A stretch of DNA of 64,000 bases from Picochlorum sp. SENEW3 (lineage: Eukaryota): assembly GCA_034226945.1 (NCBI GenBank), contig CP120457.1, forward strand, positions 1,054,001 to 1,118,000, in the 5' to 3' direction. The notes below the pieces were generated by a model. The model had not been told where the DNA came from. It worked only from the letters and a program-made list of their open reading frames with translations, and did no database searches. This document shows positions 6,023 through 64,000 of this stretch, piece after piece. A program made the translations under genes and the position numbers. The number at the start of each line of letters is the position of its first letter. Position 1 is the first letter of the stretch.

Positions 6023-6123
6023 TCCTACCACTCGCCTCTATACAATTCTTCTCACTTGTGTATCAACAGCAAAAAAGTGTAGCACACAAAGCCAATGTCT
6101 CGAGAATGTACGGACAGATCACC

Positions 6124-6142
6124 CAAATCGAATCAGTCCACG
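6124..6142 (+). promoter_or_regulatory. ERSE-like element CAAAT-N9-CCACG in the GRP94/BiP divergent promoter; palindromic CCACGTGG box also at 6420-6427
   Basis: One mismatch to the ERSE consensus CCAAT-N9-CCACG with exact spacing, lying between two UPR chaperone genes. Confidence 0.45.
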
Positions 6143-6514
6143 GACAAACGAACGAATCCTTCTCGTCGCACTCACAATCTCACAATGGACGAATGATGAG
6201 AAGTCTTCTTTTAATAAGAATACTGAAATAAAATGCCTCTGCAGAATTTTTCAATCTCCACATCTGCCTGGCCATCATGCAGACTTTCTTTTCTCGATGA
6301 CTCGGTCATTTTCTGACTTTCTTGAATGACTCACGCGCGCGTCCTTTGTCCATGTGTACCATCCAATAGAGCCTTGGATGGGCAAATGAGGGATTGACGA
6401 TGGCGACGACTTTCTCATCCCACGTGGTGGTTGGTGCCAGTCTGAACAAATAGACGCGTCACACTCAGTCACACCTACATTCAATACAAGTAAATTGTGT
6501 TTAGAAAAGGAAAA

Positions 6515-8626
6515 ATGCGTGGATTCACGGCATTGTTTTTGCTAGGTACGTGAATAATGCCAGCCAATCTGATGTTGATCAGGTTGGTCAATGCACCTTG
6601 AGACAGTCTGTCATTGAGTCTCATTCCCATACCAACGACTATTATATGCATTGCAGTGACTGTTCTTTTGGGCTTTGGCTCTCAACAGGGACAGTATGCA
6701 ATTGGTGTTCATGGAGCTGCCGATCAGGATGGGAAAGACGGCGATAAGTTGGGTACTGTGATTGGAATCGATCTTGGAACGACCTATTCTTGTGTTGGAG
6801 TGTATAAGAATGGTAAAGTCGAGATCATTGCCAACGATCAGGGAAATAGAATCACTCCCTCGTACGTGGCGTTTACTGACTCTGAGCGTTTGATTGGAGA
6901 CGCTGCAAAGAATCAGGCCACGTCCAACCCAACTAGAACTGTGTATGATGTGAAGAGATTGATTGGAAGGAACTTCAAGGATGCAGAGGTGCAGAAGGAC
7001 AAGGATTTGGTGTCTTACAAGATTGTGGACAACAAGTCAAAGCCCTATGTTAGGGTGGACGTGAACAAGGAGGACAAGACATTTTCGCCCGAGGAGATTT
7101 CTGCCATGGTGTTGACAAAGATGAAGGAGACTGCCGAAGCGTATCTGGGTAAGGAAGTCAAGCATGCTGTGGTGACTGTGCCAGCATACTTTAATGATGC
7201 ACAGAGACAGGCCACCAAGGATGCAGGTACTATTGCTGGTTTGAACGTGGTGCGTATTATCAACGAGCCTACTGCGGCTGCAATTGCCTATGGTTTGGAC
7301 AAGAAGGGTAAGGAGCAGAATATCTTGGTGTTCGATCTCGGAGGTGGTACATTCGATGTGTCCATTTTGACCATTGACTCTGGAGTCTTTGAGGTGGTGT
7401 CCACTGCTGGAGATACCCACTTGGGAGGAGAGGACTTTGACCAACGTATCATGGAGTACTTCATCAAGCTGATCAAGAGGAAGTACAGTAAGGATATCAG
7501 CAAGGACGCAAAGGGCTTGCAGAAGTTGAGACGCGAGGCTGAACGTGCCAAGAGGGCTCTGTCTTCTCAGCACCAGGTCCGTGTGGAGATTGAGTCACTC
7601 ATTGATGGAGAAGACTTCAGTGAGCCATTGACAAGGGCAAGATTCGAGGAGTTGAATGCTGATTTGTTCAAGAAAACCCTTGGACCAGTGAAGAGAGCTC
7701 TTGAGGATGCCAGCATGAAGAAGGATGATATCCATGAAATTGTCTTGGTCGGAGGATCCACTCGTATTCCAAAGGTGCAGCAGCTCATCAAAGATTACTT
7801 CAACGGAAAGGAACCAAACAAAGGTGTCAATCCAGATGAGGCTGTCGCATACGGAGCAGCTGTCCAGGGAGGAATCCTTGGAGGAGATGGAGGTGATGAT
7901 GTGAAGGACATTCTCTTGCTCGATGTGTGCCCATTGTCCATGGGAATTGAGACTGTCGGAGGGGTGATGACCAAATTGATTCCACGTAACACGGTCATTC
8001 CAACCAAGAAGTCTCAGGTCTTCTCCACGTACCAGGACAATCAGCAGACTGTCGGAATTCAGGTGTATGAGGGAGAGCGTGCCATGACCAAGGACAATCA
8101 CAAATTGGGACACTTTGACCTGAACGGCATTCCACCAGCTCCTCGTGGACAGCCACAGATCGAGGTCACTTTTGAAATCGATGCCAATGGAATCTTGAAC
8201 GTCCAGGCCGTCGAGAAGGGAAGTGGCAAGAGTGAGAAGATCACCATCACCAATGACAAGGGTAGACTGAGCCAGGAAGAAATCGATCGAATGGTCGAGG
8301 AAGCTGAAGAATTTGCCGAGCAGGATAAGAATGTCAAGGCCAAGGTGGATGCTCGTAACAACCTTGAGACATTCTGCTATTCCACGAAGAACCAGCTGAA
8401 TGACAAATTGGGTGAGAAACTTAGCGATTCGGACAAGAAGACCGTGGAGGCTGCACTGGAAGAAGGCCTGGAATGGCTTGATGCCAATGCTGATGCAGAG
8501 AAGGAAGAGTACGAGGAGAAACTCAAGGAAATTCAGGACACATGCCAGCCAATCCTGGCCAAGGCCATGGCCGAGTCTGGTGCCGGTGGTGATGACGAGG
8601 ATCTTGGCGGACATGACGAGTTGTAA
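6515..8626 (+). CDS. BIP: BiP / ER HSP70; intron 6546-6656
   Basis: Exon 1 [10 protein letters not shown] spliced to VTVLLG gives a signal peptide; [36 protein letters not shown]. Confidence 0.97.
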
Positions 8627-8652
8627 ATTCAAAGAAATTTTAATAATTGTGC

Positions 8653-9675
8653 ATGATTTTGTGTAATACAGTACCCCTCAAATCGAGTGTGGTGGGGGCC
8701 TACGCTGTTGGGCAATCTCTGACCAAGGCCTCTCACGGAAACCCACGCGAGCATGCCAGGCTGTCATTGAAATGCGCAGCATTTTCATCTGATCCGTCAC
8801 CAGTCGCTCGGAGAGTGGTTTTGGTTTCACTCGCCTTACTGCAACTCAGTAGTCCAGATGCCAATGCTGCTGCTGCTTCTCTTGAAGACGTGGAACCCCC
8901 CAAGATTGATCTGTCCTTGGCACCCGACCAAGCACAGTATGACAAGTATGACCCTGAGCTCAGACGGGCTGCAAACATGATTCAAGAGGGCCTGAATGCA
9001 GAAACGGTTGAGGAAGAGGAGAGGGTGTGGACAAGAATTATCGATGAATTCTCAACCAGCAAAGCGAATTGGAGGGATGATGTCGTTGGAAGAGCCCTTG
9101 GGAACCGAGGTAATGCTCGATCGAGGCAAGGAAAATTTAGATTCGCTTTAGAAGACTACAACGAGTCTATTGCAACCTGCCCATGGTCAGTTGACCCTGT
9201 GCTCAATCGAGGCGTACTGCTCGAAAATCTAGGGCGTTTCGATGAAGCGAAGCGGGATTATAGAGCAGTCATTTCTGTAGATCCATTAGATCCTGCAGGT
9301 TGGAATAACCTGGGGAATGCATGTGCTGGGGCAGGGGAATTTGAAGAGGCGGTGAAGTACTATGAACGTGCAACTCGCCTAGCACCAAAGTTCTCCTTTG
9401 CTGCAGCAAATAGGGCCCTAAGCACGTACCAAATCGGACGCGACTCGGAAGCACTTAAAGAAATGGAGTCGCTGGTGAGACGGTATCCCGATTTTAGCGA
9501 TATACGGGCAGCCTTGGCAGCAGCATACTGGGCAAGTGGTAAGCAAGCAGCTGCTGAGGAGGCTTTCCAGCGCGTTGATGATATTCGATACAGAGACGTC
9601 AATTGGCTTCGTTTAGAACGCCGATGGCCTCCCCGTTTGGTCAAAGAAATGGAGTCATTTTTGAAATTGCAATAG
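8653..9675 (+). CDS. Plastid (probably thylakoid-lumen) TPR protein of cyanobacterial type
   Basis: Transit-like N-terminus plus RR-hydrophobic-ANA signal; TPRs GNRGNA, LNRGVLLE, WNNLGNA; C-terminal RYRDVNWLRLERRWPP. Confidence 0.8.
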   Translation: MILCNTVPLKSSVVGAYAVGQSLTKASHGNPREHARLSLKCAAFSSDPSPVARRVVLVSLALLQLSSPDANAAAASLEDVEPPKIDLSLAPDQAQYDKYDPELRRAANMIQEGLNAETVEEEERVWTRIIDEFSTSKANWRDDVVGRALGNRGNARSRQGKFRFALEDYNESIATCPWSVDPVLNRGVLLENLGRFDEAKRDYRAVISVDPLDPAGWNNLGNACAGAGEFEEAVKYYERATRLAPKFSFAAANRALSTYQIGRDSEALKEMESLVRRYPDFSDIRAALAAAYWASGKQAAAEEAFQRVDDIRYRDVNWLRLERRWPPRLVKEMESFLKLQ

Positions 9676-12692: not shown

Positions 12693-14079
12693 ATGACATC
12701 CAAAAAATTTGTCCTCGAAGGCAAGTCGGTTGCTCTGCTGCTGGTCCTCTTGGCAGTCTTGCCGTTGCCTTGTGTCGTAGCTTCACCAGGTAAGGGGACG
12801 AAAGAACCGAAAGGGATAACCTTTTTCTCCTCAATCTCCTATATTGCGTTTCTAAAAGACGAGAATGCTTTGAAAGATCTGTATCTTTTTTCTCGCAGGT
12901 CTGTTGGATGCACCAGTCAACCTAGTCAATCTGAGGAAAAAAAGAGCACATATTGAGGCTGAACCACCCTCTACATTTTTCCGCTTTGCACAAAGATCTC
13001 TGGATGGCCTCGAGGCATTCGGTTCGCGATATTCTTACGGGGCCATCCAGAGGTCAAGTTCGCCAGGAGACCGAGTGGCATATGGGGCACCTGCTGCAAA
13101 AGGACAGTTTCCATTCGCTGTTCGGTTGGAAATAGAGAAGAAAAACGGAAAATTATCTCTTTGCGGAGGGTCCCTCGTGTCCCCAAAGGTCGTCCTGACA
13201 GCTGCACACTGCCTATATGAGACTGATGGAAGCTCTAAAGCTGAGGAGATCACGGCAATCATCGACGATAGAATTGTCCATGGAGAGTCGTATTTCTGTC
13301 CCGAATTTTCTCCTCGGACTCGAAAAGACTATTATGCTGACCTTGCCCTGATTTTGCTGGAGGAGGACGTGTCTAGTGCTGAGAAAGGCCTTATTCGCCT
13401 AGACAATGGCACTATAAAGGTTGAGGATGGAAAGAAACTTGTTGCTCTCGGTTGGGGCCACACCGAGGAACATTTTCTGTCAGAATCTCTGCTATATACC
13501 GATATTCCGTATATAAGTCGTAGGAAATTTTCAAAGTGGATCAAAGACGTCTCGAAGACTGCAAAATGGCTGTCAGGCTTTGATATTGAACAGGACAAAA
13601 TTGTGGCAGGACTGGATAAAAGCAGAAAAGACACGTGTGCTGGGGATTCAGGAGGGCCTCTGATAATAAAGAAAAGGAATGCGTGGGTGCAGATTGGCAT
13701 CACATCATATGGTCTGATAGAAGTCTGTGGACACGATCAGATGAATGTTGGTATGTATACTTCAGTTTCTCATTGGAAGAATTGGATTGCAGACGTCTTG
13801 GCCGTATACAATATGAACAGCGATTTGGATGAGAAAAAGTACACCCGAAGCAATAGCAAACCTGTATCCAAATGCCTTAGAGGCAAAGCATTCAAGGCTA
13901 TGTCCTCCTCGTTGGCTGACTGCTGCAACAGTTGTAAATCCAGCAGAGGGTGGTCCTGCCTTGCATGGTCATGGTCAAAGTCAAAACAGGAATGCAAATT
14001 GTTCGACTCGCGTCCAGACGCTAGAGCAGGAAGCGGCAAATGCATGTCTGGATATATCGAGCTCGAAGTTAACCATTGA
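12693..14079 (+). CDS. Secreted trypsin-like (S1) serine protease with C-terminal PAN/apple-like domain; intron 12790-12898
   Basis: Signal-peptide exon joins in frame; LTAAHC, DLALI, GDSGGP triad; CCNSC...CLAWSW...CKLF. Confidence 0.9.
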
Positions 14080-14310
14080 TTCACGCAGCAATAAATGACA
14101 ACTACAGTACTTGTAACACACGTTTTTTTTCAGTCTGACGGATCCATTCCATGCATGGATCCATATGGAACTCTGGCCAGAAGGTGGATGGGCAGCTGAC
14201 AAGTGATCCGCGGCCAACGTGTTGAGATGCAAAAGGTTGAATCTTTCGTCTTTTGAAGCATCAAAATAAATATCAAACATAATATATTGCCGAAAAATTA
14301 GGGGAATATC

Positions 14311-15528
14311 ATGGGAAAGGGTACTCTCTGGTTGTTCGCAACCTTGACTGTCCTATTTACCACAAGACCAATTTATGGTGCGCTAGAGGCTCGCTTTGAC
14401 ACACTACAGACCATAGTGAGTATGACAGAAGTATTTGATCGCGTCATGAATCCATATGAGTGCAGGGAAAGTCGCAGGAGCGGAACACTTCACGTTGGAC
14501 ACAAAGGGGGGCCAAGAGTTCACAGGACTCGGTACTGACCCCTCCCTCATTCGAAAGGACTTCGACACATCTCCCCTGAGAGAACTAGCTTTAAAATCAA
14601 CTGAAATGTATGTGCTTTCCCCTGTTTCTCCGTAGAGTGTGCAGCGATGCACGACGCGTTTTGAGCGGTCAAAGAGGCTAACGACGCGGTGTTGAACTAC
14701 TGCAGATCCCAGAATGCGAGCTATCAAGAGATTCCGGAGCTGATCAATGGAACAAGTAGTTTAGCTAGAATAGCATATGGCAAGAGCGTGCCGAAAGGAG
14801 TCATGCCCTTTGCTGTCTTCCTCGAAATTGAGGCTGCAGATGGAGTATACAATTGTGGTGGAACACTCATCGGACAAGAAACCGTCTTGACAGCCGCCCA
14901 CTGCTTCTTTGATGAATTCGGATACTTGACGGCATATTCCGCCGTGGCAGTTGTCGGAGAGCGGGTGATTAAGAGATCAAACAAGCTGTATGAAGTTACT
15001 GATGTTGTCAAACCACGCGGATTCAGCCCAGCATTTTCATACGAATTATTTGGCGATATAGCAATCATCAAACTCGGCTCCAGACCAAATAGAAAGCCCA
15101 TGAAACTTGGATCCAAGAAGACATCGGTCCCAAAATGGTACATCACAGCTGGCTGGGGTCTGACTGAGGACAACAGAAGGGCCTCTGAAGTGCTCCAGTA
15201 TGCCGCCGTGCCAAGCTTGTCCATCCGCCAGGTTCAAACATGGACCCAAAATATAGGAGCATACTACTCCATGGAAGTGGACCACATTGCAGCTGGCTTG
15301 GGAAGTGATAGGGCAGACTCTTGCCAGGGAGACTCGGGTGGGCCTCTATTCAAGCCAGGCAAGCAATATTCAAACTCCGAGTCATCCACTGATGTTCTCA
15401 TGGGAGTTGTATCGTATGGCCTCTCTTCTAGATGTGGCCTCAAGAACAGAAACGTAGGATTTTACACAAGTGTGCCATACTGGAGGTCCTGGATTTTGAG
15501 CCAAATGAAAAAGAGGGGATGGAAATAA
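14311..15528 (+). CDS. Second secreted trypsin-like serine protease (intron 14608-14705 plus an uncertain first intron near 14416-14477)
   Basis: Signal-like exon at 14311; RIAYG, LTAAHC, DIAII, CQGDSGGP. Confidence 0.85.
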
Positions 15529-46347: not shown

Positions 46348-47872
46348 ATGTTCTTCGGAGGAGGTTTTCCTGGAGGGCATCCGTTTGGAGGGATGCCAGG
46401 CGGAGGAGGCCCTGTAAACAATTCAAAGTATTACGAGATTTTGGGCGTCAGCAAAGATGCAACAGCCCATGAAATCAAAAAAGCGCACAGGAAACTGGCT
46501 CTGAAGTACCATCCTGACAAAGGTGGGTCGAGGCACGATTGAACAACATGCCGATTTGAAACGCCGTTGGTTGCCGTCTGGGGTTCGGGGACGTTATTTC
46601 TACTGATTTTGTTTAATATTGGGTCATTAATGGAGATTGAATGGATCCATTGGCTACGCGGAGCAACCAAGAAGGAATCTTGTGGATTGCTTCTGGAATG
46701 TTTTGACCGAGGAGCCGACAAACTAACCAGTGTATGTGCATTTCATCGCAGGAGGGGATCAGGAAAAGTTCAAGGAGATTAATGAGGCATATGAAGTCCT
46801 TCGAGATGAGGAGAAGCGCGAAATTTACGACAAATATGGAGAGGAAGCTGTGAAAGACGGTTCTGGTATGGGTGGAGGAGCAGGCGGAGCTGACATTTTC
46901 GACCTGTTCGGTATGGGTGGTATGGGCCGCCGCAGCCAAAGAGAGAGAAAGAGCGAAGACGTCGTGCATCGCCTGAAAGTATCGTTGGAAGATATGTACA
47001 AAGGATCAACCAGGAAGCTTCAAAGCACCCGCAACATCAAATGTCCCGAATGTAATGCCACTGGCAGTAAGAGCGGGAAGAAATATCGATGCGATACCTG
47101 CCAAGGCAGTGGAATGGAGGTCAAGATGCGACAAATCGGGCCAGGGATGGTGCAGCAAATCCAGCAGCGGTGCTCTTCGTGCTCTGGTGCCGGATTCTCT
47201 TGTCCTCCGTCAGACAGATGCAGCAGATGCAATGGAAAGTGTCTGGTTGCCGACAAAAAGATATTTGAGGTTCACGTGGAAAGGGGCGCACGGCATAATT
47301 CAAAGGTTGTGTTCAGAGATGAAGCAGGGACTGATTCCCCAGATGTCCTACCAGGTGATTTGATATTTGTGTTGGAGCAGAAACCAAACGACTCCTTCAA
47401 GAGAATTGGAAACGATTTGTTCATGGAGAAATCTGTGAGTCTCGTGGAATCCCTGACCGGGTGCACCATGCACATCACTCAGCTTGATGGAAGGATTCTG
47501 GAGATGAAGACACCAGTTGGACACGTGATCACTCCAGACTCTTGGACATGCATCAAAAATGAAGGAATGCCAATCCAAGGACATCCATTTGATAAAGGCA
47601 ACTTGTACATTCACTTTACTGTCGAGTTTCCGGAGAAGATTACCGAGGAGCAGAGCAATGCCTTGAGAACAATCTTTGGCGCACCACAGTCCAATGGCAC
47701 ATCGCCCATGAATGAGGAGGACATCGAGGAGGTTGCCATGGTAACAGTGGCGGATATAGAAGAGGAAATCAAGAGGCGCAAGCAGTACGAAAGGACGTCG
47801 GGAGCTTACAACAGTGATAGTGATGATGACATGGGTGACAGACCACGAGGCGTGTCATGTGCTCAGCAGTAA
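46348..47872 (+). CDS. Type I DnaJ (DNAJA/ATJ2-like); intron 46523-46751
   Basis: HPD, G/F region, CxxCxGxG repeats, CaaX box CAQQ. Confidence 0.96.
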
Positions 47873-51985: not shown

Positions 51986-54265
51986 ATGTGGTGGTTTATT
52001 TTGGTTACCTGTGTCATTTCACACACAAGCAAAGCTTCAATACTATCATTCAGTGAACTCACCCAATGCCTGGATGAGGAGGTAGGAATATTAGATATGT
52101 CCCACTGAGACTGGTAATTCAGGTGCATGCTTGATTATTCAGGACATTTTAACATGCTCTGAGAAACTCGTCGTCTCTATGACAGTAGAGAATGGCAAGA
52201 TATACGAGACTGACTACCTAGATTTTACCATTGACTGTGTTGGTTCACCAACTGGGGAATGCCCCTGTGGCTGCATGCACTCTGTCGATAAAGACTGCTC
52301 GTGTAGGGATTTGTCAACCCCCATCAGAGTCAGTGTTGTCAGAACTCCTGTGAAGATCCTGTACCCACTTGCAGAGCCAACAACTTTCAATGGAAGGCCA
52401 CACGAGGTGTGTAATTCCCTGTCCACAGCTGTTAGGTGAGACGAAGATACTGTTTAACTCGAGATCTGTGCTGACATAGGTATATATTCCAACAGGGTAT
52501 GGATCTCGCGAAAATCAGTGTATCGACGACGAGTTTCACTCCAATCCAACATGTGGGTGGGCACGTTCCAGCAGTGCCACTGCATCAAATATAGATATCC
52601 TGTATGTTTGCCTGCATATTTCGCATCGTATGATCTAGCACGTTACCTGAAATCATTTTCAATTCATTTTTAGGGACAGCCAAGGATTCTGCTGCGTGTG
52701 CCCTTTTTGGGGGGCGCAAGAAACGATCCCAAGAGGCTACAGGGACTGTTCGTATTCTCTTTCCTGGTTGACAGAAGGGACCCCAGGCTCTGCTCATTGC
52801 TTGCGATACGACGAAGATTGGTGGTACAGAGGATATAAAATAGGTAAATATCAACTGGATTTTCAGATCCAAGTGAGCATCCAAAATATGGCAAACCATT
52901 CTGAGAATTATCCACAGACAAGCAGACGGGAACTAATTTCACTGTCACCTTCACAGACGTCACACACCTCAAGCATTGGCAATATGCATGCCGAGCTGGT
53001 GGGGGATCTCGCGTCTTATCAAGAAATAGCGAGTCTGAAGGATTATTGGGTAATGGTGCCCGTGCAGCCAGGGCTCTCGCCGAATGAGATCTTCACATCT
53101 AATAGGGACATGTGGCTCATCCTGCCACCTTCACTGGTATCCACATCGGGGGAGTGTGACAAGGTCGGAGTAAGCTATTCTTCCTTCAGATACCAGACTA
53201 ATGGATGTCAGAGGCCCTTAGGGTCTTGTTTGTCCAATCAAATTTATGATTTTGAGATGCAGGACAGATACCGTGTGGAGGAGGGGCTGGAGCCACTTTA
53301 CAACATCCGCCGTTATGGAGGAGGCAGTGATAATCCCGAACAGATCAGCGAAAATTCACATGGTCTCGTTCTCAGTCTTCCCTTGAAGCAGATGCGAAGC
53401 AGTGTCGTGGTGCTTTCCATCAATGCTGACTCGGTCAGATTTGTGACCCAGGTTGGCCATGGCATCATCAGTGGAGCAGCCATCTGTACTTTTGATGGTG
53501 ACACGTGCGGACAGTTCCAGGCAATATCAGGCAGAGGATATCTTCAAGTACATGTCAATAATACGAGCACAAATGATGCCATGTTCCACGTGTCTGTTGT
53601 CAATTGCAGTGCTGAAATAGTCCCAATCCTGCAGATTAGTGCAGCGGTGCAGGGAATACACATGGAAACTTTCATGTTCGAGGTACAATCACGAACTGAT
53701 ATAGCATCTAATTGCTCTTGTACTGTTGTCGTGAAGAATGCTTTGGCAGAAGTAACTGATACACTGTCAGTGCTCTTTCGGCTAACACCCACAGACTACA
53801 CTCCAAACTCAGAACAATCAGATATTGAGGACAAGGTGCGATCGGCGAGTTATCACCCCGCAATTCTATTCTGTAGTTGCATAAGACATTCAATAAATTA
53901 TGTTTTGTACATGTTTGCTTGTGCAGGCAAGCAACCCCGGCAATCCCCCACAATATTCACCCTGTAGCAAACTCTGCCCGAATGTGTTCAACCTCAAATG
54001 CTCATTATTTGCTGGATGTTGGTCCCAAGCTTTGAAAGGATTTATCATTTTGCTTGGTATAGTCGGATCAATTTACATGACATGGGTCATCTTTAAAACC
54101 CGTGCCATCCCCAGGGCTTTGTCGTATCTGTTCATCAGAAATCCACAGAGACGAGAATCTGTGCCAAGTCTGCGGTCGAACCCGGTCTATGACGCAGGCG
54201 GTGTGCAAAACCAGCCTTCGACTCTATTTAAAACCACATGCAATGGCCCAACTGCGCCAATATAG
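51986..54265 (+). CDS. HAP2: HAP2/GCS1 gamete fusion protein; introns 52082-52142, 52407-52479, 52602-52673, 53836-53926
   Basis: Signal peptide, C.EKLVV, PTCGW, SQGFCC, SAHCLR, CDKVGVSYSSFRYQ..C.RP.GSCL.NQ, single C-terminal TM helix; all splice phases fit. Confidence 0.93.
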
Positions 54266-54946
54266 GGACGCACTCTGTTTCCAATGAGCTCCCATGCGCT
54301 GTGATGGTATGATGCAGACTCTGGCCCGTGATATCTGGCTTTCAACAGATTCAAATACACAAAGATGTTGGTCGCTAGTCGTAACTTTCCACTCATCAGC
54401 AAAAAGCTCACCATTAACTGTAACAATGCCCCTATATCACAGAGGCCCATGTACAACAGCGCTTGCTGTTGCGTTTGACCCAATGTTCTGTACCATCTGT
54501 CGAACCTTGGTGCTGACACTTGAGAGTCAGTTAAAACCTTGTTCGCAAACGACGCTGCATGATATACAGCTAAGATACTCTGCGATACAAGCATAAGCGT
54601 TGCTGATGGATTGGACAACAAGATGAAATCGCCCAGCAGGTAAAAAGATTCAGTTGTGCCTGCAACACTCCTCAACCATGCCACCAAGGCCGAAAAACTC
54701 TTTGGAGGCGGAGCCCTCCTGAGCAGCTACAGCGACAGACTTTGTATGATCAGGGTATTATTCTTCATGAACATTGACAAAAAGGATACACACCCGAAGT
54801 ACATGCACCAGGAGGGATATTCGAGTCGCTAGAAACGACGCTTGATTCTGCAAAGATTTTGAGAAGGGTTGCAAGGCCACGCAGGTGCAGGCTATCAGGA
54901 TCACATGGATCCATAGTAAGAAAATATCTTTTGCACTTTTGATCAT
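54187..54946 (-). CDS. TMEM33/Pom33 (UPF0121) membrane protein; intron 54727-54793
   Basis: Spliced MIKSAK...VALQPF...HVLRLLRRAP...FYLL...LLKARYH...AWELIG, resembles plant/algal TMEM33. Confidence 0.7.
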
Positions 54947-55956
54947 TACAACTCTCCCTGAAAAAGGTATTCTGAAATGGTTTTGGCCACCCTCTCCTCG
55001 TGAGGCAGGTAGTGTCGCTCGTGAATCCTGGGGAAAGGCGTATCGTATCCCGTCACTCTGAGCGGCGGTGCCTTCAGACTACTCCAGCAAAGCTCAGAAA
55101 TGGATGCGACAAGCTCTGCCCCAAAACCACTCGTCTTTGGAGCCTCGTGCACGACGACCAAGCGCCCAGTCTTGCTCACAGACGCCACCAAACATGGCAG
55201 ATCAAGCGGGATGAGAGATCGAACGTCGATCACTTCACAAGAAATGTCCAGTCTATCCTTCAGAAGCGAAGAAGCACTCAGTGATGTATGAACCTGCTGG
55301 CCCCATGCCAAAATGGTCACGTCTGTCCCTGCCTGCACAATATTCGCCTTCCCCAGGGGGATTGAGTAATGTTCATATGGAACCATTTCCTCCCTCAGCC
55401 TGTACATTATTTTAGGCTCGAAGAAGACCACTGGATTTTGATTCTCTATGGAAGATATTAGAAGGCCTTTCGCGTCGTGTGGGCCGCTGGGAATGACGAC
55501 ATGGATCCCTGGAACGTGGGTCAGGAATGCTTCTGGGGACTGCGAATGATACATACCTCCATGCCCCACTGCCCCCCAAGGAGCTCGTATCGTGAGGCCT
55601 CCGACGTTGCAATGCCCCCCTGATCGATACCTATATTTAGCAGCCTCGTTAATTATTTGATCGAGGGCTGGGTATATGTAATCGGCAAATTGGATCTCAG
55701 CCAAGGCCGTGAAGCCTGCTGCTGCTGCTCCCACACCAAAGCCGACAATACCCTGCTCGGATAGAGGCGTATTGAATACACGCTTCCCTCCAAACTGCTT
55801 CTGAAGACCCTCTGTACATCTAAAAACGCCGCCAAAGGCGACATCTTGCCCGAATAAGATGGACTTTTCATTCCTTGACATGACTGAGTGCAAGGCATCT
55901 CGTACTGCCCCACATAGATTCAACTTTCTCCTGAGCATTCTACCGTGCCCTTTCAT
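54946..55956 (-). CDS. BCKDHB: Branched-chain 2-oxo-acid dehydrogenase E1 beta
   Basis: FGQDVAFGGVFRCT, FNTPLSEQGIVGF, EIQFADY, GHGGMYHSQSPEA, GYDTPFP. Confidence 0.95.
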   Translation of the reverse strand: MKGHGRMLRRKLNLCGAVRDALHSVMSRNEKSILFGQDVAFGGVFRCTEGLQKQFGGKRVFNTPLSEQGIVGFGVGAAAAGFTALAEIQFADYIYPALDQIINEAAKYRYRSGGHCNVGGLTIRAPWGAVGHGGMYHSQSPEAFLTHVPGIHVVIPSGPHDAKGLLISSIENQNPVVFFEPKIMYRLREEMVPYEHYSIPLGKANIVQAGTDVTILAWGQQVHTSLSASSLLKDRLDISCEVIDVRSLIPLDLPCLVASVSKTGRLVVVHEAPKTSGFGAELVASISELCWSSLKAPPLRVTGYDTPFPRIHERHYLPHEERVAKTISEYLFQGEL

Positions 55957-56031
55957 GACAGATACACCCTGTATCAGTCAATATCAGAATAGCTTGCCGT
56001 GGATTACAGCTGAGTATCAAGGGCTCTAATC

Positions 56032-56169
56032 TGACCGGTCGATATCGGTCAACATGATCATCTCGTCCCTTCGAATTCGAATTCGAATTTCGTCCCTTCG
56101 AAGGGCGCACGCGTGCGCGTCCTCAGTCGAGATCTAGATCTGGCCTCAGATCTGAGGCCAGATCTCGAC
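56032..56169. repeat. Cluster of nested palindromes in the E1b/SSADH divergent promoter
   Basis: GACCGGTC, CGATATCG, (TTCGAA)3, CCCTTCGAAGGG, GCGCACGCGTGCGC, perfect 30-bp AGATCTGGCCTCAGATCTGAGGCCAGATCT (56136-56165). Confidence 0.9.
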
Positions 56170-56240
56170 ATCCATGATACCACTCTGTGTCAAGCCGCGG
56201 TCGTTCCTTCTTGAAGGTTTAATGAAATACAAATCTTGTC

Positions 56241-57999
56241 ATGTCTTTGGTGTATCACAGTCGATCTCGTGCAAGGTTTGTTTCGAGGGTGGGGTATTTC
56301 CTTCTTGGGAAAAGACAATTTTCATCTTCCTTGGGTTCGATGTCGAATGACGCCATGCCGCTTGAATTGAATGATAAAGAATTATTTCAGACAGGGGCAT
56401 TCATCGGGAACGAGTGGATCCAGCAGTCCGAATCCGGCAAGAGGTACCAGGTGCGACGAGTATGCAGTATCTTGCGTTGGTCCGAAGACTGGGCCTGAGA
56501 GTATCAGTGTTCGCATTCCAGGTTCAAAATCCTGCCACAGGAGAATCCATAGCTGAGGTTGTAGAATGTGGGGCTGTCGAGACCGAGAAGGCCATTCAAG
56601 AGGCCTCGTCAGCGTTCAAAAGTTGGTCTCAGAGGACAGCAAAGTCGCGGGCAAGTATACTGCATCGGTGGCATCAAGAGATTGTGAACGCCAGGGACGA
56701 TATCACCCGTATCATGACACTGGAATGTGGAAAACCTCTCCCCGAGTCGCGAAATGAATTTGATTCTGGGTGCGTATTGTCCTCTCCCTTTGACGCATTG
56801 TCACTTTGATTGTGAGTGTTACAGTTCCCAAATGGATTGCATTGTGCAGAGTGGAGTCCATCACCTGGTTCGCAGAGGAGTGCAAACGGAGCAATGGCGA
56901 CATCATCGAAACTCCTGCAGACGACAAGCAGTTCTTTGTGCTGAAGCAGCCTGTCGGGGTGGTTGGGGCCATCACCCCCTGGAATTTTCCATTCAGCATG
57001 ATCACTCGCAAGGTATCCCCGGCTCTCGCTGCGGGATGCACAGTATGTTTAAAACCAGCTGAGCTGACGCCTCTGACCGCTTTTGCTTTAGCTGAATTGG
57101 GAAAGAGGGCTGGCATCCCCAAAGGTGTGCTGAATATTGTGTCAGGAGATGCCATAGCCATCGGCAAAGCTTTCACTGATTCCAGAATCGTGAGAAAGTT
57201 GGCCTTCACTGGGTCGACCCGAGTTGGCAAATTGCTATATGCTGCTTCCTCAGACACCATGAAAAGGGTATCTCTAGAATTGGGAGGAAATGCACCCTAC
57301 ATTGTTTTTGAAGATGCAGACGTGGACATTGCAGCGCGGGATGTCGTGCTGTCATCTTATCGTAATGCTGGGCAGACGTGCATTTGCACGAATAGAGTCT
57401 TTGTTCACGAGAATATTTATGACAAGTTCAATGATGCCTTGAGCAAACAAGTCGCCAAATTGCGTCTGGGAGATGGCCTGCAGCCTGGAATTTCTCATGG
57501 GCCGCTGATCTCCAAGACAGCTGTCGATGAGGTTCACGCGAAAGTTCAGGATGCTGTAGGCAAAGGAGGAGTCGTCCTAGCCGGTGGGCAGCGACCCGAT
57601 TTTGGCACCTCGTCACCGCTAGGTGGAGGCTTCTTTTATGAACCAACAGTGATCACGAATGCAACAGTGGACATGAGGGTATTCAAAGAGGAAATATTCG
57701 GACCAATCACGCCCGTCTTCAAATTTTCCAGTGATGCGGAAGTGGTACAAATGGCCAATGACACAGAATACGGCCTCGCTGCATATTTCTATACACAGAA
57801 TGTCACCCGTGTCTGGAGGGTGGCAAAGGCCCTTGAATACGGCATGGTTGGGGTGAATCAGGTTGCGATAACGAGCGAAGTTGCCCCATTTGGAGGAGTA
57901 AAAGAATCTGGATTAGGAAGAGAACACTCCAAGTACGGATTGGATGAATTCCAGGACAAAAAGACTGTCTGCCTTGGGCTGGGCAAACTTGATCTTTGA
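56241..57999 (+). CDS. SSADH: Succinate-semialdehyde dehydrogenase (ALDH5), mitochondrial; introns 56451-56521 and 56770-56849
   Basis: ITPWNFP..MITRK, FTGSTRVG, LELGGNAP, RNAGQTCIC, EEIFGP, PFGGVKESGLGRE. Confidence 0.93.
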
Positions 58000-58016
58000 C
58001 ATTCGTTTTTTGAATT

Positions 58017-59737
58017 TTACTTCTTGAGCTTTAACTTTTTTGCCAGCCGCTGCTGAACAGATAATTTGTGTTTGATTTTGTTGTTTCTTTGATCGCTAGA
58101 CATCCTGGAAGGCAAATCTTCCAGTGAGGATAGGTGGGCTGGTTGGCTTGCCTCACGGAGTATTTGTTCATTATACAACCTCTCCGCTTTCCTCTTCTCC
58201 TTACTGCTCAGAGAACTAGAATTCACAATACTCGTATCACCATGATACGGGGTCTCTTTGGGGTATCTGGATGGCTGTATTGCTTTTCTGGCAGGTTGGC
58301 ATTGTTCCTCCCTCGGATGGTTTTTGTACTGGATATTGGACTGGTCTACAAGAAACAGGGCATCCAGTCGATCCTTTGGGAGCTCTTGATGTACATCTAC
58401 CGGACCCCAATGATTTGACACCTCCATGGCGTGTGATCCAGCATAGACTGGCGGAGCGTCACTGTCCCAGACACGTGCAAAGCTGCTTGATGCTACAATA
58501 GGTGCAACTTCTGCCAATTTCTTCAACACTGCCTTGTCGCTGGACGATCCTCTAGAGACTTGATCTTTGGCCTTATCCCTTTGTAGTTTATAGTGATTTG
58601 ACACGCGAGCACGAGGAGCTGTCGGATCGTTGATCATCTGCATGGGATTGTGCGGTTTGGCACTCGGACCACCCTGCTGCTCTGCAGTCTGGCTAGAGCT
58701 GGATGCTCTGCGTGCTCCATTGAGCCCATTGCGAAGCTCTCGAACAAACTTTTCCTGATATTCCATGCATATGGCGACAATATCTGAGTTGATCTCCGCA
58801 GCCTCCCGGAGGACACTGCCCGCCTCTGCACTTCCCACGTGCCGCTGGCATGTCCTGACAATAGACTGAAGGCGCGGAATCGCCTGGATAGTGGCCTCCC
58901 TGTATCCATCTAAGAGATGTGCACTATAACTTTCCAGGCCGTTGTCGCTGCCTTCTTGCACATCCTCCCAGTCGTCTTCAGACACCTCTTCTGTTCCCAC
59001 AGGGGCTGGCAGGCCGGACGGAGCCTTGCCATCAAGTATGTTGCGCGCATTTTTTAGCTCTTCTAGTAATACTTTCCATCGAGGAAGTTTGGATCGAAAC
59101 TCTGCGATCGCTGCCTGTAGCTCCCGTGAGATTATGGCAGCATCTGGGCTGGAGGTGCCTTCTGCCAGTTGCTCGTGCCTAGAGTCAACACGTTCCGGCA
59201 CAACTGACGCAATCTGTGGAGACTCGATCAGCCCTGATGACTCTAAATATCTATAGGCTACTCGAAGTCTCGGCAAGACCTCGGCATATCGCTGATGCCA
59301 GTGCTTCAACGACCTAGCACCACAGTGTTTGAGTTCCTCTGCCGAAGCTTGAGGCTCTGGCAAAGCCCCTCGCCGCCGACACCCAATCACATTGTCCAGA
59401 AATAGATCTAATTTTTGACACGCAAGGTCTCGAAACAGACTAGACCTCTCGAAAAGCGCTGTCCACAGCTCCAAAGCACAAAGCCGAATCTACAAGGACA
59501 CAACAGGAAAGGGTACTCAGGCCACGCCCTCGGATCCAAAAGACTTCCACGACCTCGTACCTGACTATTATTGGCTTGTAATCTGTCCAAAATAGCGTTA
59601 AAAAGCTTCCTAATGTTCCCCTGCGAGATCTTCCCCAGTCGTTTTACTGCCAGGATGTCCCTGTGCTCTACTTCTTCTCCAGGACACTTGTGCTCGGTTG
59701 CCCGCTGAACAAACTCCTTTATAGCATTCTCATTCAT
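58017..59737 (-). CDS. UVSSA: UV-stimulated scaffold protein A; intron 59490-59560
   Basis: Spliced NSQIRLCALELWTALFERSSLFR, LPEP..SAEEL, DPT, LAEVAP, NHWGP, C-terminal VQQRLAKKL. Confidence 0.8.
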
Positions 59738-59994
59738 TGGAAAACTGATTTGGGTGTGTCCAAGCAACCCATACCCCACGTATTTGAATGGGCGCATGTG
59801 GGTACCTTTTTTAAAAAAAAAATCGACGAATGACCGACTCGGAATGTCCGATGATCCGTGTGAACTCGGAGATGTTTAGGGAGAAAGCCTTTCGCTTTCG
59901 TGCATATCTTATTGTTCAATATCCGACAATATTCATACGTATGTGTGAGAGTCGTGCGTTGCTGGTGATCGTTTGAAACTGTGTGCACACTGCC

Positions 59995-60489
59995 ATGTGT
60001 ACCACACAACACAACACGGATAGGCATCCTCAATCTGGTAGAAACAAAGATAATTCCAATTTTCATGGGGGTCCAGAGACTCCATCTCCTCTGGGTATGC
60101 ACTCCGTGCCCATCGCCAGGACGCCAGTGTTGGAAGGAGAGGTTTGTGTCTCTGACAAGCGAGAAAGAGAACGAGAGGTTTTAGATGCCGCAAATCGATT
60201 GTGCGATTTCAATGTGCAACTTATGGCTCACATTGAGACATTACGCTCGAGAATCCTTGAGTTGGAGGAGGAGAATTCCTCCCTGCGACAGAAAGTAGAT
60301 GGGCAGTCCACACCCTCACAGGGAGATGAAAGCGTCATTCACCTGCTGCAGGTCGAAGTAGCCGATTTGGAAAGGCAGCTATATCATGCAAAGATTGCAA
60401 GAAAATCGGCAGAGGAGAATGAAGCTGCTGCAAGGGAGAGGGCTGATATGATTTCTGCCATGTTTGAGCAATTCGTGACCAAGAATTGA
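59995..60489 (+). CDS. Small coiled-coil hypothetical protein
   Basis: Heptad-rich ORF filling the gap. Confidence 0.6.
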   Translation: MCTTQHNTDRHPQSGRNKDNSNFHGGPETPSPLGMHSVPIARTPVLEGEVCVSDKREREREVLDAANRLCDFNVQLMAHIETLRSRILELEEENSSLRQKVDGQSTPSQGDESVIHLLQVEVADLERQLYHAKIARKSAEENEAAARERADMISAMFEQFVTKN

Positions 60490-60512
60490 TTTTTAAACTT
60501 ACAAATGAAAAA

Positions 60513-61223
60513 CTAAAAATTCATTTTCCTGGGCACCGATCCCCCGTGATGAAGAACAAGTTTCCAGTCTCCCTTCTGTTTCTCGAAAATATTTGTGGCG
60601 ACCACCCTTCCCCTGCTTTCCTCAGTGTCCACAACCTCCACAACAGTCACAATCCCCTGGGTGTCTGTGGCGTATATTCTCACATCTTCTAGCTCGATAT
60701 CCATCCTCTGAGACGAAGCTAAGATGAGTTTCCAGCTTGCTAGAACGTCCTCTCGTCCTGCAATACATTCTGCAGCGGGGTGAATGCACTGCACGTGTGC
60801 CCCAGACCCCCAAATCTTCGCCATGGCGACATAGTTACCCCCCCTAAAAGCGTCGTAGAATGCGTCGTTCGCCTCTTCCACAGCCAAACGGTTGTCATCC
60901 CGCCTTTTCCTACAGAAACACGGCAATTTGCTCGCTGAAGCACGAGGGAGTCGATCAAAATCATGAACAGACAGGACGTACTGTATCTCATCCCTGAGAG
61001 AGGCAGCCAACTCGTACTCTTCTCTGTCTATGGCACTATCCAAATCCTCCACTAATCGTTGGAGAGTCCTTGGATCATCGTTCCCAGATGCATGCGCCAC
61101 CATGGACGCCCTTTTGGGCGATGCCCGTCCTCCTCTCGGCCTTGCAGTGAGGATGCAGTGCTGCCCACCCCTGCATCCCACCACACCGCCTCCCCGATTG
61201 TTGGATTGATAAAGTACATTCAT
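60513..61223 (-). CDS. UVR + SnoaL/NTF2-like domain protein (SKIP8-like); in-frame intron 60910-60981
   Basis: AIDREEYELAASLRDEI; ANDAFYDAF, CIHP, GREDVLASW, ATNIFE...WKLVLHH. Confidence 0.88.
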   Translation of the reverse strand: MNVLYQSNNRGGGVVGCRGGQHCILTARPRGGRASPKRASMVAHASGNDDPRTLQRLVEDLDSAIDREEYELAASLRDEIQYVLSVHDFDRLPRASASKLPCFCRKRRDDNRLAVEEANDAFYDAFRGGNYVAMAKIWGSGAHVQCIHPAAECIAGREDVLASWKLILASSQRMDIELEDVRIYATDTQGIVTVVEVVDTEESRGRVVATNIFEKQKGDWKLVLHHGGSVPRKMNF

Positions 61224-61383
61224 ATTTATTTTATATTACGCACCAGTACTCCGAAAGGGGATGATGCAAGCAGAAAAGGACAAGGCCAGCGTCCTTTTTT
61301 TTTAAGGAGGACCGCGGATCCACCCTGCACAAAAGACCCGCCATGACTTCGATGTTGCCAGATTGATATTAAATTTCCCCATC

Positions 61384-62847
61384 ATGGCATCTAGTATCTT
61401 GAAAAGGCGGGATATATGCAACGCACTCGGGTGGAGTGCCTGTAGAACGAGAGCATTTTCGACCTACACGCTGTCGAGTGTCGTGGATCACCTTCCTCAA
61501 GCTGTAGCCAAATTTCACGTACGATCCTCGGCTGTATATCTTTAATTGATTACTAGTAACAATGTACTCGTATGGGTTCAGGACATTGTGGCAGACAGAG
61601 CTTCTGGGTGCTATGTTTGGGACACCTCTGGTAGAAAGTTGATGGACTTGACAAGCGGCATTGGTGTCACTTCCACGGGCCATTCGCACCCAAAAGTGAT
61701 TGAAGCGATTCATAATCAGGCAAATAGGATCATATTTGCCCAGCAGAATATCCTGCCTGCGACAGAGGCTTCGATCAACCTCATCAACCACCTCAAAGGC
61801 ATCATGCCTTCTACCCTCAGCAGATTCTTCTTCTGTAATAGCGGTTCAGAAGCAGTAGACAATGCCATCAAAGTGGCTCGATCCTACACTGGAAAGCAAA
61901 ATATTATATGCATGCAAGGTGGCTACCATGGGCGCACGTATGGCGCAATGTCCATCACGACGTCAAAAACGGTGTATCGGCAAACATTTGGGCCCCTGCC
62001 CAGTGGGATTGCTGTGGCCAGTTATCCGTACTGCTTGCACTGTCCGACTCGGAAGGCAGCCGGAGGTATGGGCTTTTCTGTTTCTCCGTGTGTGGAGGGT
62101 GTGGGGAAATCATTCTCAGAGAGGCAATGCTGCGGATCACCACTCGAGCAGCTGGAATTGTTGTTGAAAACACAGTCTCACCCAAGTGAGACTGCTGCGA
62201 TCATCATCGAGCCTATCCTGGGAGAGGGAGGGTTCCTAGTCCCTCCAAGTGGATATCTAGATGAGCTCAGGAGAATCTGTGACCAGAACAACATGCTGCT
62301 CATATTTGATGAGGTGCAATCTGGTGTGGCCCGTACTGGAGAATGGTGGGGACACCAGACTCTCACAAAGGTGCAACCAGACATTATGATATTTGCAAAA
62401 GGAATAGCCAGTGGATTCCCCTTCGCAGGCTTGGCAGCGAGGGACGACATGTTCTCTAAGATGACGCCAGGCATGATGGGCGGAACGTATGGGGGCAGTG
62501 CCCTTGGGTGCGCTGCTGCTGTTGGCACACTTGAAGCCATCATGGAGGAAAATATGATGGCTAATGCCAAAGCCAGAGGGTCACAGATGATGAATGCGCT
62601 GGTCAAACTCGCCGATACATACCCAATCCTTGAGGTCAGAGGCAGGGGACTGATGATTGCTGTTGAGTTTGACGGCCCGCCAGGAACAGCTGCCAAAGTG
62701 GTACAAGAAGGGTTCGATGAAGATTTAATTCTCATCACCGCTGGCATCAGAGAGACTGTGAGGCTCTTACCACCGCTGGTGATCACTGAGGAAGACGTCC
62801 ATTTTGCCATGGGTGCTTTGGATAGAGCACTCTCTCGAGTTTTTTGA
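61384..62847 (+). CDS. Class-III aminotransferase, most likely 4-aminobutyrate (GABA) transaminase of bacterial GabT-like type; intron 61519-61581
   Basis: Mitochondrial-like presequence, DLTSGIGVTSTGHSHP, NSGSEAVDNAIK, YHGRT, IEPILGEGG, FDEVQSG..RTG, AKGIASGFP, GGTYGG. Confidence 0.75.
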
Positions 62848-63118
62848 TTTGTTCAATCCTCCCTGTTTTTATTTTATTTTCGGTGCCATGTGAGTAAGCT
62901 CCTACCACTCTGCGTTTGTTGCACTGTTATGTCATGTATATCTGGAGCAGTACAACTTGTCTCTGTTGTGAGACAAGAATTCTTGCCAATCAATCCGCGT
63001 CCCACGATGGTGGGTACCCACCGGATGACCGGTCATCAACCCTACCCTCAACCGCTTTCATGCATACGATATTCCTTCAGAATTTAACAGTTCCATTGCA
63101 CAAAAACAGAATCAGACA

Positions 63119-64000
63119 ATGTTTAAAGAGTCTCAATCAACCAAGGACGTGTCCCACCTCCAGGGCCGGGATCGTGATGACGTTGTGGACTGCACGTTTG
63201 CATCGAGGTATATGAGCGAACCCATTCCAAAATCTGTCATGCCAGAGTCCAGTATTCCAGCAAATGTGGTTCACCAGGTGATCAAGGACTTGCGCACGCT
63301 GGACGCAAGGCCAAATCTTAACCTCGCATCTTTTGTGACAACTTGGATGGAGCCCCAGGCTCAAGAATTGATCATGGATTCTCTGAATATCAACTTTGTT
63401 GATACTGATGAGTACCCATCGTGCCAAGAGATTTCCAACAGGTGCGTGGCCATGCTTGCCCAGCTCTTCCACTCTCCTTCTGTGGATGCTTTGGGGAATG
63501 GAGACGCAGTCGGAGCCCCAACTGTTGGCTCCAGTGAGGCAATCATGCTTTCCGGACTTGCCATGAAAAAGAGGTGGCAGGAGAGACGCGCTGCGGAGAA
63601 CTTGGACACCACCAAGCCAAACTTGGTCATGGGAAACCAGACCCATGTGTGCTGGGAAAAGTTCTGCAGATACTGGGATGTGGAGGCTAGGTACGTCCAG
63701 GTCGAGGAAGGTCGCTACTGTGCTACTCCAGAACTCATTGCTGCTCGATGCGATGAGAACACCATTGGGGTCGTGTCTGTATTCGGTTCCACCTACACCG
63801 GTGAGTTTGAAGACACTGAAGCCCTCGATGCCATGGTGACAAAGATGAACAAGGAGAATGGCTGGAACATCGTCATCCACGTAGACGGAGCATCCGGTGC
63901 CATGGTCGCCCCATTTGTGTATCCAGATGTCAAGTTTGACTTCCGGTTGGATAATGTTGCCTCCATCAACATTTCAGGACACAAGTACGGCTTGGTTTAT
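63119..64000 (+). CDS. GAD: Glutamate decarboxylase, 5' part (runs off the right edge)
   Basis: TFASRY, PNLNLASFVTTWME, DTDEYP, TVGSSEAIML, CWEKFCRYWDVE, HVDGASG, SINISGHKYGLVY. Confidence 0.96.
   Translation, partial: MFKESQSTKDVSHLQGRDRDDVVDCTFASRYMSEPIPKSVMPESSIPANVVHQVIKDLRTLDARPNLNLASFVTTWMEPQAQELIMDSLNINFVDTDEYPSCQEISNRCVAMLAQLFHSPSVDALGNGDAVGAPTVGSSEAIMLSGLAMKKRWQERRAAENLDTTKPNLVMGNQTHVCWEKFCRYWDVEARYVQVEEGRYCATPELIAARCDENTIGVVSVFGSTYTGEFEDTEALDAMVTKMNKENGWNIVIHVDGASGAMVAPFVYPDVKFDFRLDNVASINISGHKYGLVY

Follow-up and report, generated by a model that had tools for sequence, protein, structure and literature searches.

The closest described counterparts of the gene arrangement analyzed here are the bacterial gab operon (gabD-gabT-gabP) and gadBC, together with the γ-aminobutyrate (GABA) shunt of plants, which consists of glutamate decarboxylase (GAD), the GABA transaminase (GABA-T) POP2, and the succinic semialdehyde dehydrogenase (SSADH) ALDH5F1. 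Plant GABA-T is pyruvate- or glyoxylate-dependent and belongs to another branch of the class-III aminotransferases. The DNA that was analyzed, best explained as nuclear DNA of a green alga, is a 64,000-nucleotide stretch from Picochlorum sp. SENEW3 (contig CP120457.1, positions 1,054,001 to 1,118,000), which as a whole is referred to as the window. Near its end, genes for an SSADH, a class-III aminotransferase, and a GAD all lie on the plus strand, within 7.8 kb and inside six consecutive genes. Monocistronic, separate from one another, and intron-bearing, these three genes are predicted to supply every enzyme of the GABA shunt. Gene identity, gene structure, and linkage together make it probable that a shunt neighborhood was assembled once by rearrangement and has been retained in one clade.

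In terms of the bacterial systems, the likeness lies in the pairing of a GabT-type aminotransferase with a GabD-type SSADH. The Picochlorum SSADH is 58% identical to Cupriavidus GabD, and there are bacterial loci in which the aminotransferase stands beside an SSADH-like gene (L080, 52%; L065, 44%). In contrast to gab and gadBC, the Picochlorum genes are monocistronic, carry introns, and are split by unrelated eukaryotic genes; the neighborhood also differs from the bacterial loci in including GAD (0 of 80 bacterial loci), in the presequence-like N-termini of its proteins, and in its algal ancestry. With plants it shares a GAD that is 53–59% identical to the listed angiosperm GADs, an SSADH of the same family, and a probable split between a cytosolic GAD and a mitochondrial GABA-T and SSADH. 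The plant genes are dispersed, whereas those of Picochlorum are linked and include an aminotransferase that is GabT/PuuE-like.

The yeast DAL and GAL clusters and the green-algal nitrate, urea, and photorespiration neighborhoods described in PMC7826186 are similar in that non-homologous primary-metabolic genes are gathered by rearrangement and retained in one lineage and unlinked in relatives; compared to these, the Picochlorum cluster has a looser layout and occurs in a single clade. The supplement of that paper (Foflonker and Blaby-Haas 2020) covers 317 conserved algal neighborhoods, with Picochlorum SENEW3 included, and the portion of it that was examined holds 0 entries for "aminobutyrate" or "glutamate decarboxylase". 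PMC11092101 mentions that "functional gene clusters" had previously been detected in SENEW3. In the literature searched, which included passages of PMC7826186, PMC12458973, PMC11092101, and PMC4256263, neither Picochlorum nor another alga was found to be described with a GABA-shunt cluster, and earlier SENEW3 work (Foflonker 2015, 2018) might list one.

Two of the three genes can be named firmly from their predicted proteins. Exon 3 of the SSADH gene scored 458 bits against Pfam Aldedh, and its best NCBIfam model was TIGR01780 with 528 bits, the next non-SSADH family scoring 374. Eight of the nine PDB matches at E ≤ 1e-100 are named SSADH. The same exon contains ...LELGGNAP... and ...GQTCICTNR..., the motifs of the catalytic Cys and Glu of aldehyde dehydrogenases, and the 90% cluster of the protein has members from Picochlorum sp. 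SENEW3, Picochlorum sp. BPE23, and P. renovo. The two introns (56451–56521 and 56770–56849) were fixed by a spliced RNA contig (X16 record 7), and a P. oklahomense transcript protein that is 99% identical (P0241) reads both junctions exactly as spliced. The GAD fragment, with 294 residues or ~60% of the protein, scored 367.5 bits against TIGR01788, and the full-length relatives P0372 and P0122 scored 578.5 and 575.4, above the cut-off of 380.4. P0372 belongs to the cluster (at least 90%) represented by P0121, which is 90% identical to the GAD fragment, and P0122 is 82% identical. The translation ends in ...NISGHKYGLVY, in which the S-x-H-K motif marks the lysine of GAD that binds pyridoxal phosphate. 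By eye, no obvious Trp/Lys-rich calmodulin-binding tail was seen at the C-terminus of the full-length GAD relatives.

The aminotransferase can be named firmly by family. Its intron (61519–61581) is present in the X16 spliced contig and in a marine metatranscriptome (X18), and the protein scored 377 bits against Pfam Aminotran_3. Among solved structures in the PDB, it matched PuuE (6wj8, 260 bits) and E. coli GabT (1sf2, 243 bits) best, and the highest-scoring acetylornithine aminotransferase reached 220. When the protein was aligned with 1sf2, eleven GabT residues were all identical (I50, Y138, R141, E206, E211, D239, V241, Q242, K268, T297, and R398). The active-site list behind this comparison, with its Schiff-base Lys, carboxylate-binding Arg141 and Arg398, and Glu211 switch, comes from the E. 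coli GabT structure work. JGI and UniRef list homologues as 4-aminobutyrate aminotransferase, these names being automatic. Among the six closest bacterial loci examined (42–46% identity), the gene directly upstream encodes an aldehyde:ferredoxin oxidoreductase or an aldehyde dehydrogenase in five, and the sixth has no upstream flank; an aldehyde dehydrogenase lies within 10 kb in 16 of 80 bacterial aminotransferase loci. This pairing with aldehyde oxidizers points to a pattern of amine-to-aldehyde-to-acid catabolism, not arginine synthesis. The predicted protein is probably a GABA transaminase and likely depends on 2-oxoglutarate.

The coordinates of the genes and spacers are collected in Table 1. 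From left to right, the order is branched-chain 2-oxoacid dehydrogenase (BCKDH) E1-beta (minus), SSADH (plus), UVSSA-like (minus), a 168-aa open reading frame (ORF) (plus), SnoaL/UVR (minus), aminotransferase (plus), and GAD (plus), so that the aminotransferase adjoins GAD. The earlier note had placed the three co-oriented genes at these coordinates, within ~8 kb and with the aminotransferase and GAD adjacent, and the ORFs and profile searches bear this out. They form a metabolic neighborhood in the sense of at least three non-homologous genes of one pathway in physical proximity. The term "gene cluster" that had been used for them is appropriate for their physical closeness and not for contiguity, as the UVSSA-like gene, the coiled-coil ORF, and the SnoaL/UVR gene lie in between; the arrangement is a loose neighborhood and not a tight or contiguous cluster. 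No other GABA-metabolism gene was found in the 64-kb window, in which 31 further ORFs were scanned.

Table 1. Pathway genes, intervening genes, and flanking features of the neighborhood, in window coordinates.
Feature	Position	Strand	Details
SSADH gene	56241..57999	+	535 aa; exons 56241-56450, 56522-56769, 56850-57999
Class-III (omega) aminotransferase	61384..62847	+	466 aa; exons 61384-61518, 61582-62847
GAD gene, first 294 residues	63119..64000	+	ATG at 63119; runs past window end
Spacer, aminotransferase stop to GAD start	62848..63118		271 bp; presumably aminotransferase 3′ end and GAD promoter
UVSSA-like gene (DNA repair)	58017..59797	-	Pfam UVSSA_N E=2.3e-11; intron 59490-59560
168-aa coiled-coil ORF	59983..60489	+	Glu/Leu-rich, heptad-like C-terminal half; RNA contigs X16 record 9, X18 record 14
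SnoaL_3/DUF4440 and UVR-motif gene	60513..61223	-	Pfam SnoaL_3 2.5e-23, UVR 3.5e-6; intron 60909-60980
BCKDH E1-beta	54946..55956	-	Pfam Transket_pyr and Transketolase_C

To place the arrangement among other green algae, linkage was read from the locus tags and longest-contig sizes of homologues, using the best 120 matches per protein. Among these matches, the partner genes are on different chromosome-scale contigs in seven chlorophyte species, all of which are outside the linked clade. These are Micractinium tetrahymenae (aminotransferase 2.77 Mb, SSADH 4.70 Mb), Parachlorella kessleri (aminotransferase 3.14 Mb, GAD 4.25 Mb), Chlorella variabilis (aminotransferase 1.34 Mb, SSADH 2.57 Mb), Coccomyxa elongata (aminotransferase 2.31 Mb, SSADH 2.61 Mb), Coccomyxa viridis (aminotransferase 2.87 Mb, SSADH 2.42 Mb), Edaphochlamys debaryana (aminotransferase 0.74 Mb, SSADH 4.22 Mb), and Coccomyxa subellipsoidea (GAD 2.22 Mb, SSADH 2.70 Mb). 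The earlier note had looked to synteny across chlorophyte genomes, and this expectation failed, the linkage being confined to one clade.

Within that clade, the aminotransferase and one of its partners, GAD or SSADH, have exactly the same longest-contig size in 16 instances, spread over 11 relatives. The aminotransferase and GAD share the sizes 29227, 33096, 83943 (from the cluster to which P. soloecismus belongs), 61884, 63953, 98221, 22490, 5163, and 190484, while the aminotransferase and SSADH share 28572, 26164 (with both proteins on 7 contigs), 25881, 20323, 17207, 16117, and 6120. By our estimate, 16 exact coincidences are far beyond chance, under which well fewer than one would be expected. 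On contigs as short as 5,163 and 6,120 bp, the partner genes have to lie close together; in the window, the distance from the start of SSADH exon 3 to the aminotransferase stop is 5,998 bp, which fits the 6,120-bp contig. A related strain that is 95–99% identical (X10) is colinear across the region. Consecutive MMETSP transcript numbers (aminotransferase 12794 and GAD 12795) were not used because this numbering is not positional.

An IQ-TREE quick tree was built from 40 aminotransferase rows, consisting of the window and 39 of the 120 listed matches with the other 81 omitted; the rows comprise all those with linkage information, chlorophytes, some top matches, and three outgroups. The window and all 11 linked relatives fall in one 19-row clade (SH-aLRT 99), of which the other seven rows carry no linkage information. 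Six unlinked rows, from Chlorella, Micractinium, Parachlorella, two Coccomyxa, and Edaphochlamys, are outside the clade, and a single change of state is enough to account for all the labels, 12 linked and 6 unlinked. Since kin share labels, this pattern shows a single origin and not selection. Aminotransferase identity within the linked clade goes down to 59–61%, which is as distant as the unlinked Chlorella and Micractinium. On these records, the linkage appears to be kept beyond one species and within one clade only.

If the gene number N of Picochlorum is taken to be roughly 7,000, the chance of finding three named genes inside six consecutive genes would be ~60/N^2, or ~1e-6, and would stay small after a few hundred candidate pathways are allowed for. 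A non-random linkage is supported by this estimate and by the depth of the linked clade. The closest species-assigned matches of all three proteins, among the best matches listed, are from chlorophytes or plants, which argues that the neighborhood was assembled from resident genes and not imported as an operon. The genes would have been inherited vertically, linked once by rearrangement in an ancestor of Picochlorum and its relatives, and retained since.

In the proposed working of the shunt, GAD, which is probably cytosolic, would make GABA from glutamate. The bacterial-type and probably 2-oxoglutarate-dependent aminotransferase would then convert GABA to succinic semialdehyde in the mitochondrion, where the semialdehyde would be oxidized to succinate by SSADH. 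The first 40 residues of SSADH are Ser/Thr-rich and contain 6 R+K and 1 D+E by composition count, and the N-terminal ~35 residues, basic and Ser-rich, are presumed to be a mitochondrial presequence. By the same count, the first 40 residues of the aminotransferase contain 5 basic and 2 acidic residues and are Ser/Thr-rich, so that exon 1 looks like a presequence; those of GAD contain 7 D+E and show no presequence-like N-terminus. Candidate benefits of the linkage, if it has any, are shared regulation or the avoidance of a build-up of reactive succinic semialdehyde. The avoidance of toxic-intermediate accumulation is said to have been proposed for fungal clusters by McGary and colleagues in 2013.

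Transcription was assessed with Logan contigs of four public runs that were placed on 55900–64000, with introns taken from run X16. All three pathway genes are transcribed, and their RNA-derived contigs are separate units. The last position covered by the aminotransferase contig is 62905, and that of GAD (X16 record 11) spans 63101–63945, which leaves 62906–63100 uncovered, a gap that is itself no evidence. The aminotransferase and GAD thus appear to be separate transcription units, read-through being something that contigs cannot exclude. The X16 contig depths of 56 for SSADH, 11 for the aminotransferase, and 388 for GAD are not usable to rank expression.

Several findings weigh against a shunt neighborhood assembled once and retained. 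With respect to the enzymes, P0241, which is a record that lacks the presequence, scored 621.4 against TIGR01780, narrowly below the cut-off of 646.35 (the next non-SSADH family scored 440). The SENEW3 orthologue of SSADH (P0383) is named 3-sulfolactaldehyde dehydrogenase in one public annotation; this is probably a transferred name, as the family and structure searches favor SSADH. For the aminotransferase, the best NCBIfam model was PRK08117, with 403 bits and a cut-off of 574, the GABA-T model TIGR00700 gave 310 bits and has a cut-off of 506.65, and the argD model TIGR00707 scored slightly higher than TIGR00700 (329). The GabT residues that are kept are common to 2-oxoglutarate-dependent omega-aminotransferases, and are necessary and not sufficient for GABA. 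The compartments, mitochondrial for SSADH and the aminotransferase and cytosolic for GAD, are suggested by composition alone. With respect to the arrangement, the gap of 3,384 bp between SSADH and the aminotransferase holds three unrelated genes on mixed strands, and no promoter word of at least 7 bases was common to the three upstream regions, which is a weak test with three short sequences. The linkage in relatives stands for equal longest-contig sizes and not for DNA that was read, all three genes were seen together in the window and the near-identical X10, with farther relatives showing pairs, and GAD is beside the aminotransferase in none of the 80 bacterial loci. Retention may also be gene-order inertia.

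This last point leads to the reading that survives best next to the favored one, in which the genes are true shunt genes that were brought together by a chance rearrangement and stay linked only through the slow decay of gene order in small, compact genomes, with neither co-regulation nor benefit. The unrelated mixed-strand genes inside the neighborhood, the separate transcription units, and the lack of a shared promoter word would all be expected in that case, and since the genes are unlinked in the seven chlorophytes checked, linkage is not needed for the pathway. Against it stand the low prior chance of the trio in six consecutive positions and the persistence of both pairings to an aminotransferase distance at which Chlorella and Micractinium are unlinked. 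We regard neutral linkage as a possible explanation, and a somewhat doubtful one.

Another possibility is that only two shunt enzymes are encoded and that the aminotransferase acts on another omega-amine, such as N-acetylornithine, ornithine, putrescine, 5-aminovalerate, or beta-alanine. No GABA-T cut-off was reached, and TIGR00700 was equaled or exceeded by argD and by PRK05769 ("acetyl ornithine aminotransferase family"). P. soloecismus P0362 is likewise below every curated aminotransferase cut-off. The database names are automatic, and the nearest bacterial relatives are paired with aldehyde:ferredoxin oxidoreductases of unknown substrate. The PDB ranking, in contrast, favors PuuE and GabT, the pairing with aldehyde oxidizers fits a catabolic amine-to-acid route, and the adjacency of GAD and closeness of SSADH are kept across the clade. 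Chlamydomonas also has a separate acetylornithine aminotransferase, ARG9, which is Cre06.g278163 according to PMC10216424; the family discussed here is represented in Chlamydomonas by CHLRE_09g413750, for which no mention (as Cre09.g413750) was found in the literature searched. We consider a different substrate rather improbable.

The assignment as GABA-T that was made in the earlier note is therefore retained in part. It is favored by the PDB ranking, the active-site residues, and the bacterial context, and it lacks a curated cut-off; because none was reached, the protein is filed as GabT-like and outside the bacterial TIGR00700 equivalog. Linkage, which had been offered as further support for the name, is circular when used alone and counts only when combined with independent evidence. 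Acetylornithine, the alternative substrate that had been mentioned, is weakened by the PDB ranking, the bacterial neighbors, and the separate ARG9.

The import of a bacterial gab or gad operon that later gained introns, which a GabT-type enzyme unlike the plant pyruvate-dependent or animal ABAT types and the reported horizontally acquired stress genes of Picochlorum (PMC11092101) might have suggested, is extremely improbable and was rejected: the closest species-assigned relatives of all three proteins are green-algal or plant, where the genes are unlinked, eukaryotic genes are interspersed, a metagenome scan with the aminotransferase alignment gave 80 loci that are all bacterial-looking and at most 46% identical, and 0 of these 80 have GAD beside the aminotransferase.

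Two further features of the aminotransferase were observed. At 62020–62190 ("YPYCLHC...RQCCGSP"), there is a ~20-residue insert with four conserved cysteines (CxxC ... CC). This Cys4 insert is present in chlorophyte members, in Chlorokybus, and in the fungus Diversispora, whereas neither the nearest bacterial homologues nor the oomycete and Radiomyces rows have it. It possibly binds a metal or an Fe-S cluster. As a lead only, mammalian GABA-AT has a CxxC-bound [2Fe-2S] cluster. The database search also found no match above 82% identity for the protein, compared to 99% for SSADH and 90% for GAD from the same genus; either it is faster-evolving, or the protein collection lacks or masks its nearest orthologues.

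The account of a neighborhood assembled once and retained has a bolder version. In a halotolerant green-algal clade, the shunt neighborhood would have arisen de novo under selection as a shared chromatin domain, perhaps with BCKDH E1-beta, and would be switched on jointly under salinity, hypoxia, or carbon–nitrogen shifts, with the semialdehyde never accumulating and with a metal-binding Cys4 GABA-T that is absent from bacterial relatives. We hold this combination to be unlikely.

The genes around and between the pathway genes can be described as follows. The UVSSA-like gene is convergent with SSADH, with 17 bp between the stop codons, and has no tie to the GABA pathway; its intron appears as a CT..AC joint in an X16 RNA contig. 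No Pfam family matched the 168-aa ORF. The SnoaL/UVR gene is read away from the aminotransferase, with a 160-bp spacer between them, and its intron joint is present in X16. The BCKDH E1-beta gene was assigned by the score of human BCKDH beta (2j9f, 427 bits vs ~200 for pyruvate dehydrogenase beta). It is divergent from SSADH across 284 bp, and both are mitochondrial amino-acid catabolic enzymes. The two genes may share a bidirectional promoter, and BCKDH E1-beta is only possibly part of the neighborhood. About 75 bp before the start codon of SSADH, the same spacer contains a perfect 30-base palindrome (56136–56165) that consists of AGATCT and GGCC units and has 18-base core words occurring nowhere else in the window. 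Just upstream of the palindrome, the word TCGTCCCTTCGAA is repeated and GAATTC occurs three times.

Elsewhere, the window is ~48% G+C and gene-dense (~1 gene per 1.8 kb), with short GT-AG introns. Genes for HSP90 (minus), HSP70 (plus), and a TPR-repeat protein (plus) are direct neighbors at 3563–9675, and a DnaJ gene is located at 46730–47872; together these may be a chaperone and co-chaperone neighborhood. A HAP2/GCS1 gamete-fusion gene is present at 52696–53967 (Pfam E=2.8e-70), which is notable because the genus Picochlorum is not known to have a sexual cycle. Two tandem trypsin-family protease genes are on the same strand at 12904–15528.

Eukaryotes rarely have gene clusters for primary metabolism, and those that are known serve to study how selection acts on gene order. 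The lineage-restricted linkage of GABA-shunt genes adds one modest new example to the eukaryotic metabolic gene neighborhoods. A linked clade that can be set against unlinked sister lineages with the same genes makes the ideas of co-regulation and of a toxic intermediate testable in small genomes, and genetic tools exist for some Picochlorum strains. The linkage also provides context support for the GABA-T name on a widespread, uncharacterized family of algal, fungal, and oomycete aminotransferases. If the enzyme is a GABA-T, the step that a pyruvate-dependent enzyme carries out in land plants would fall to a bacterial-type one in green algae.

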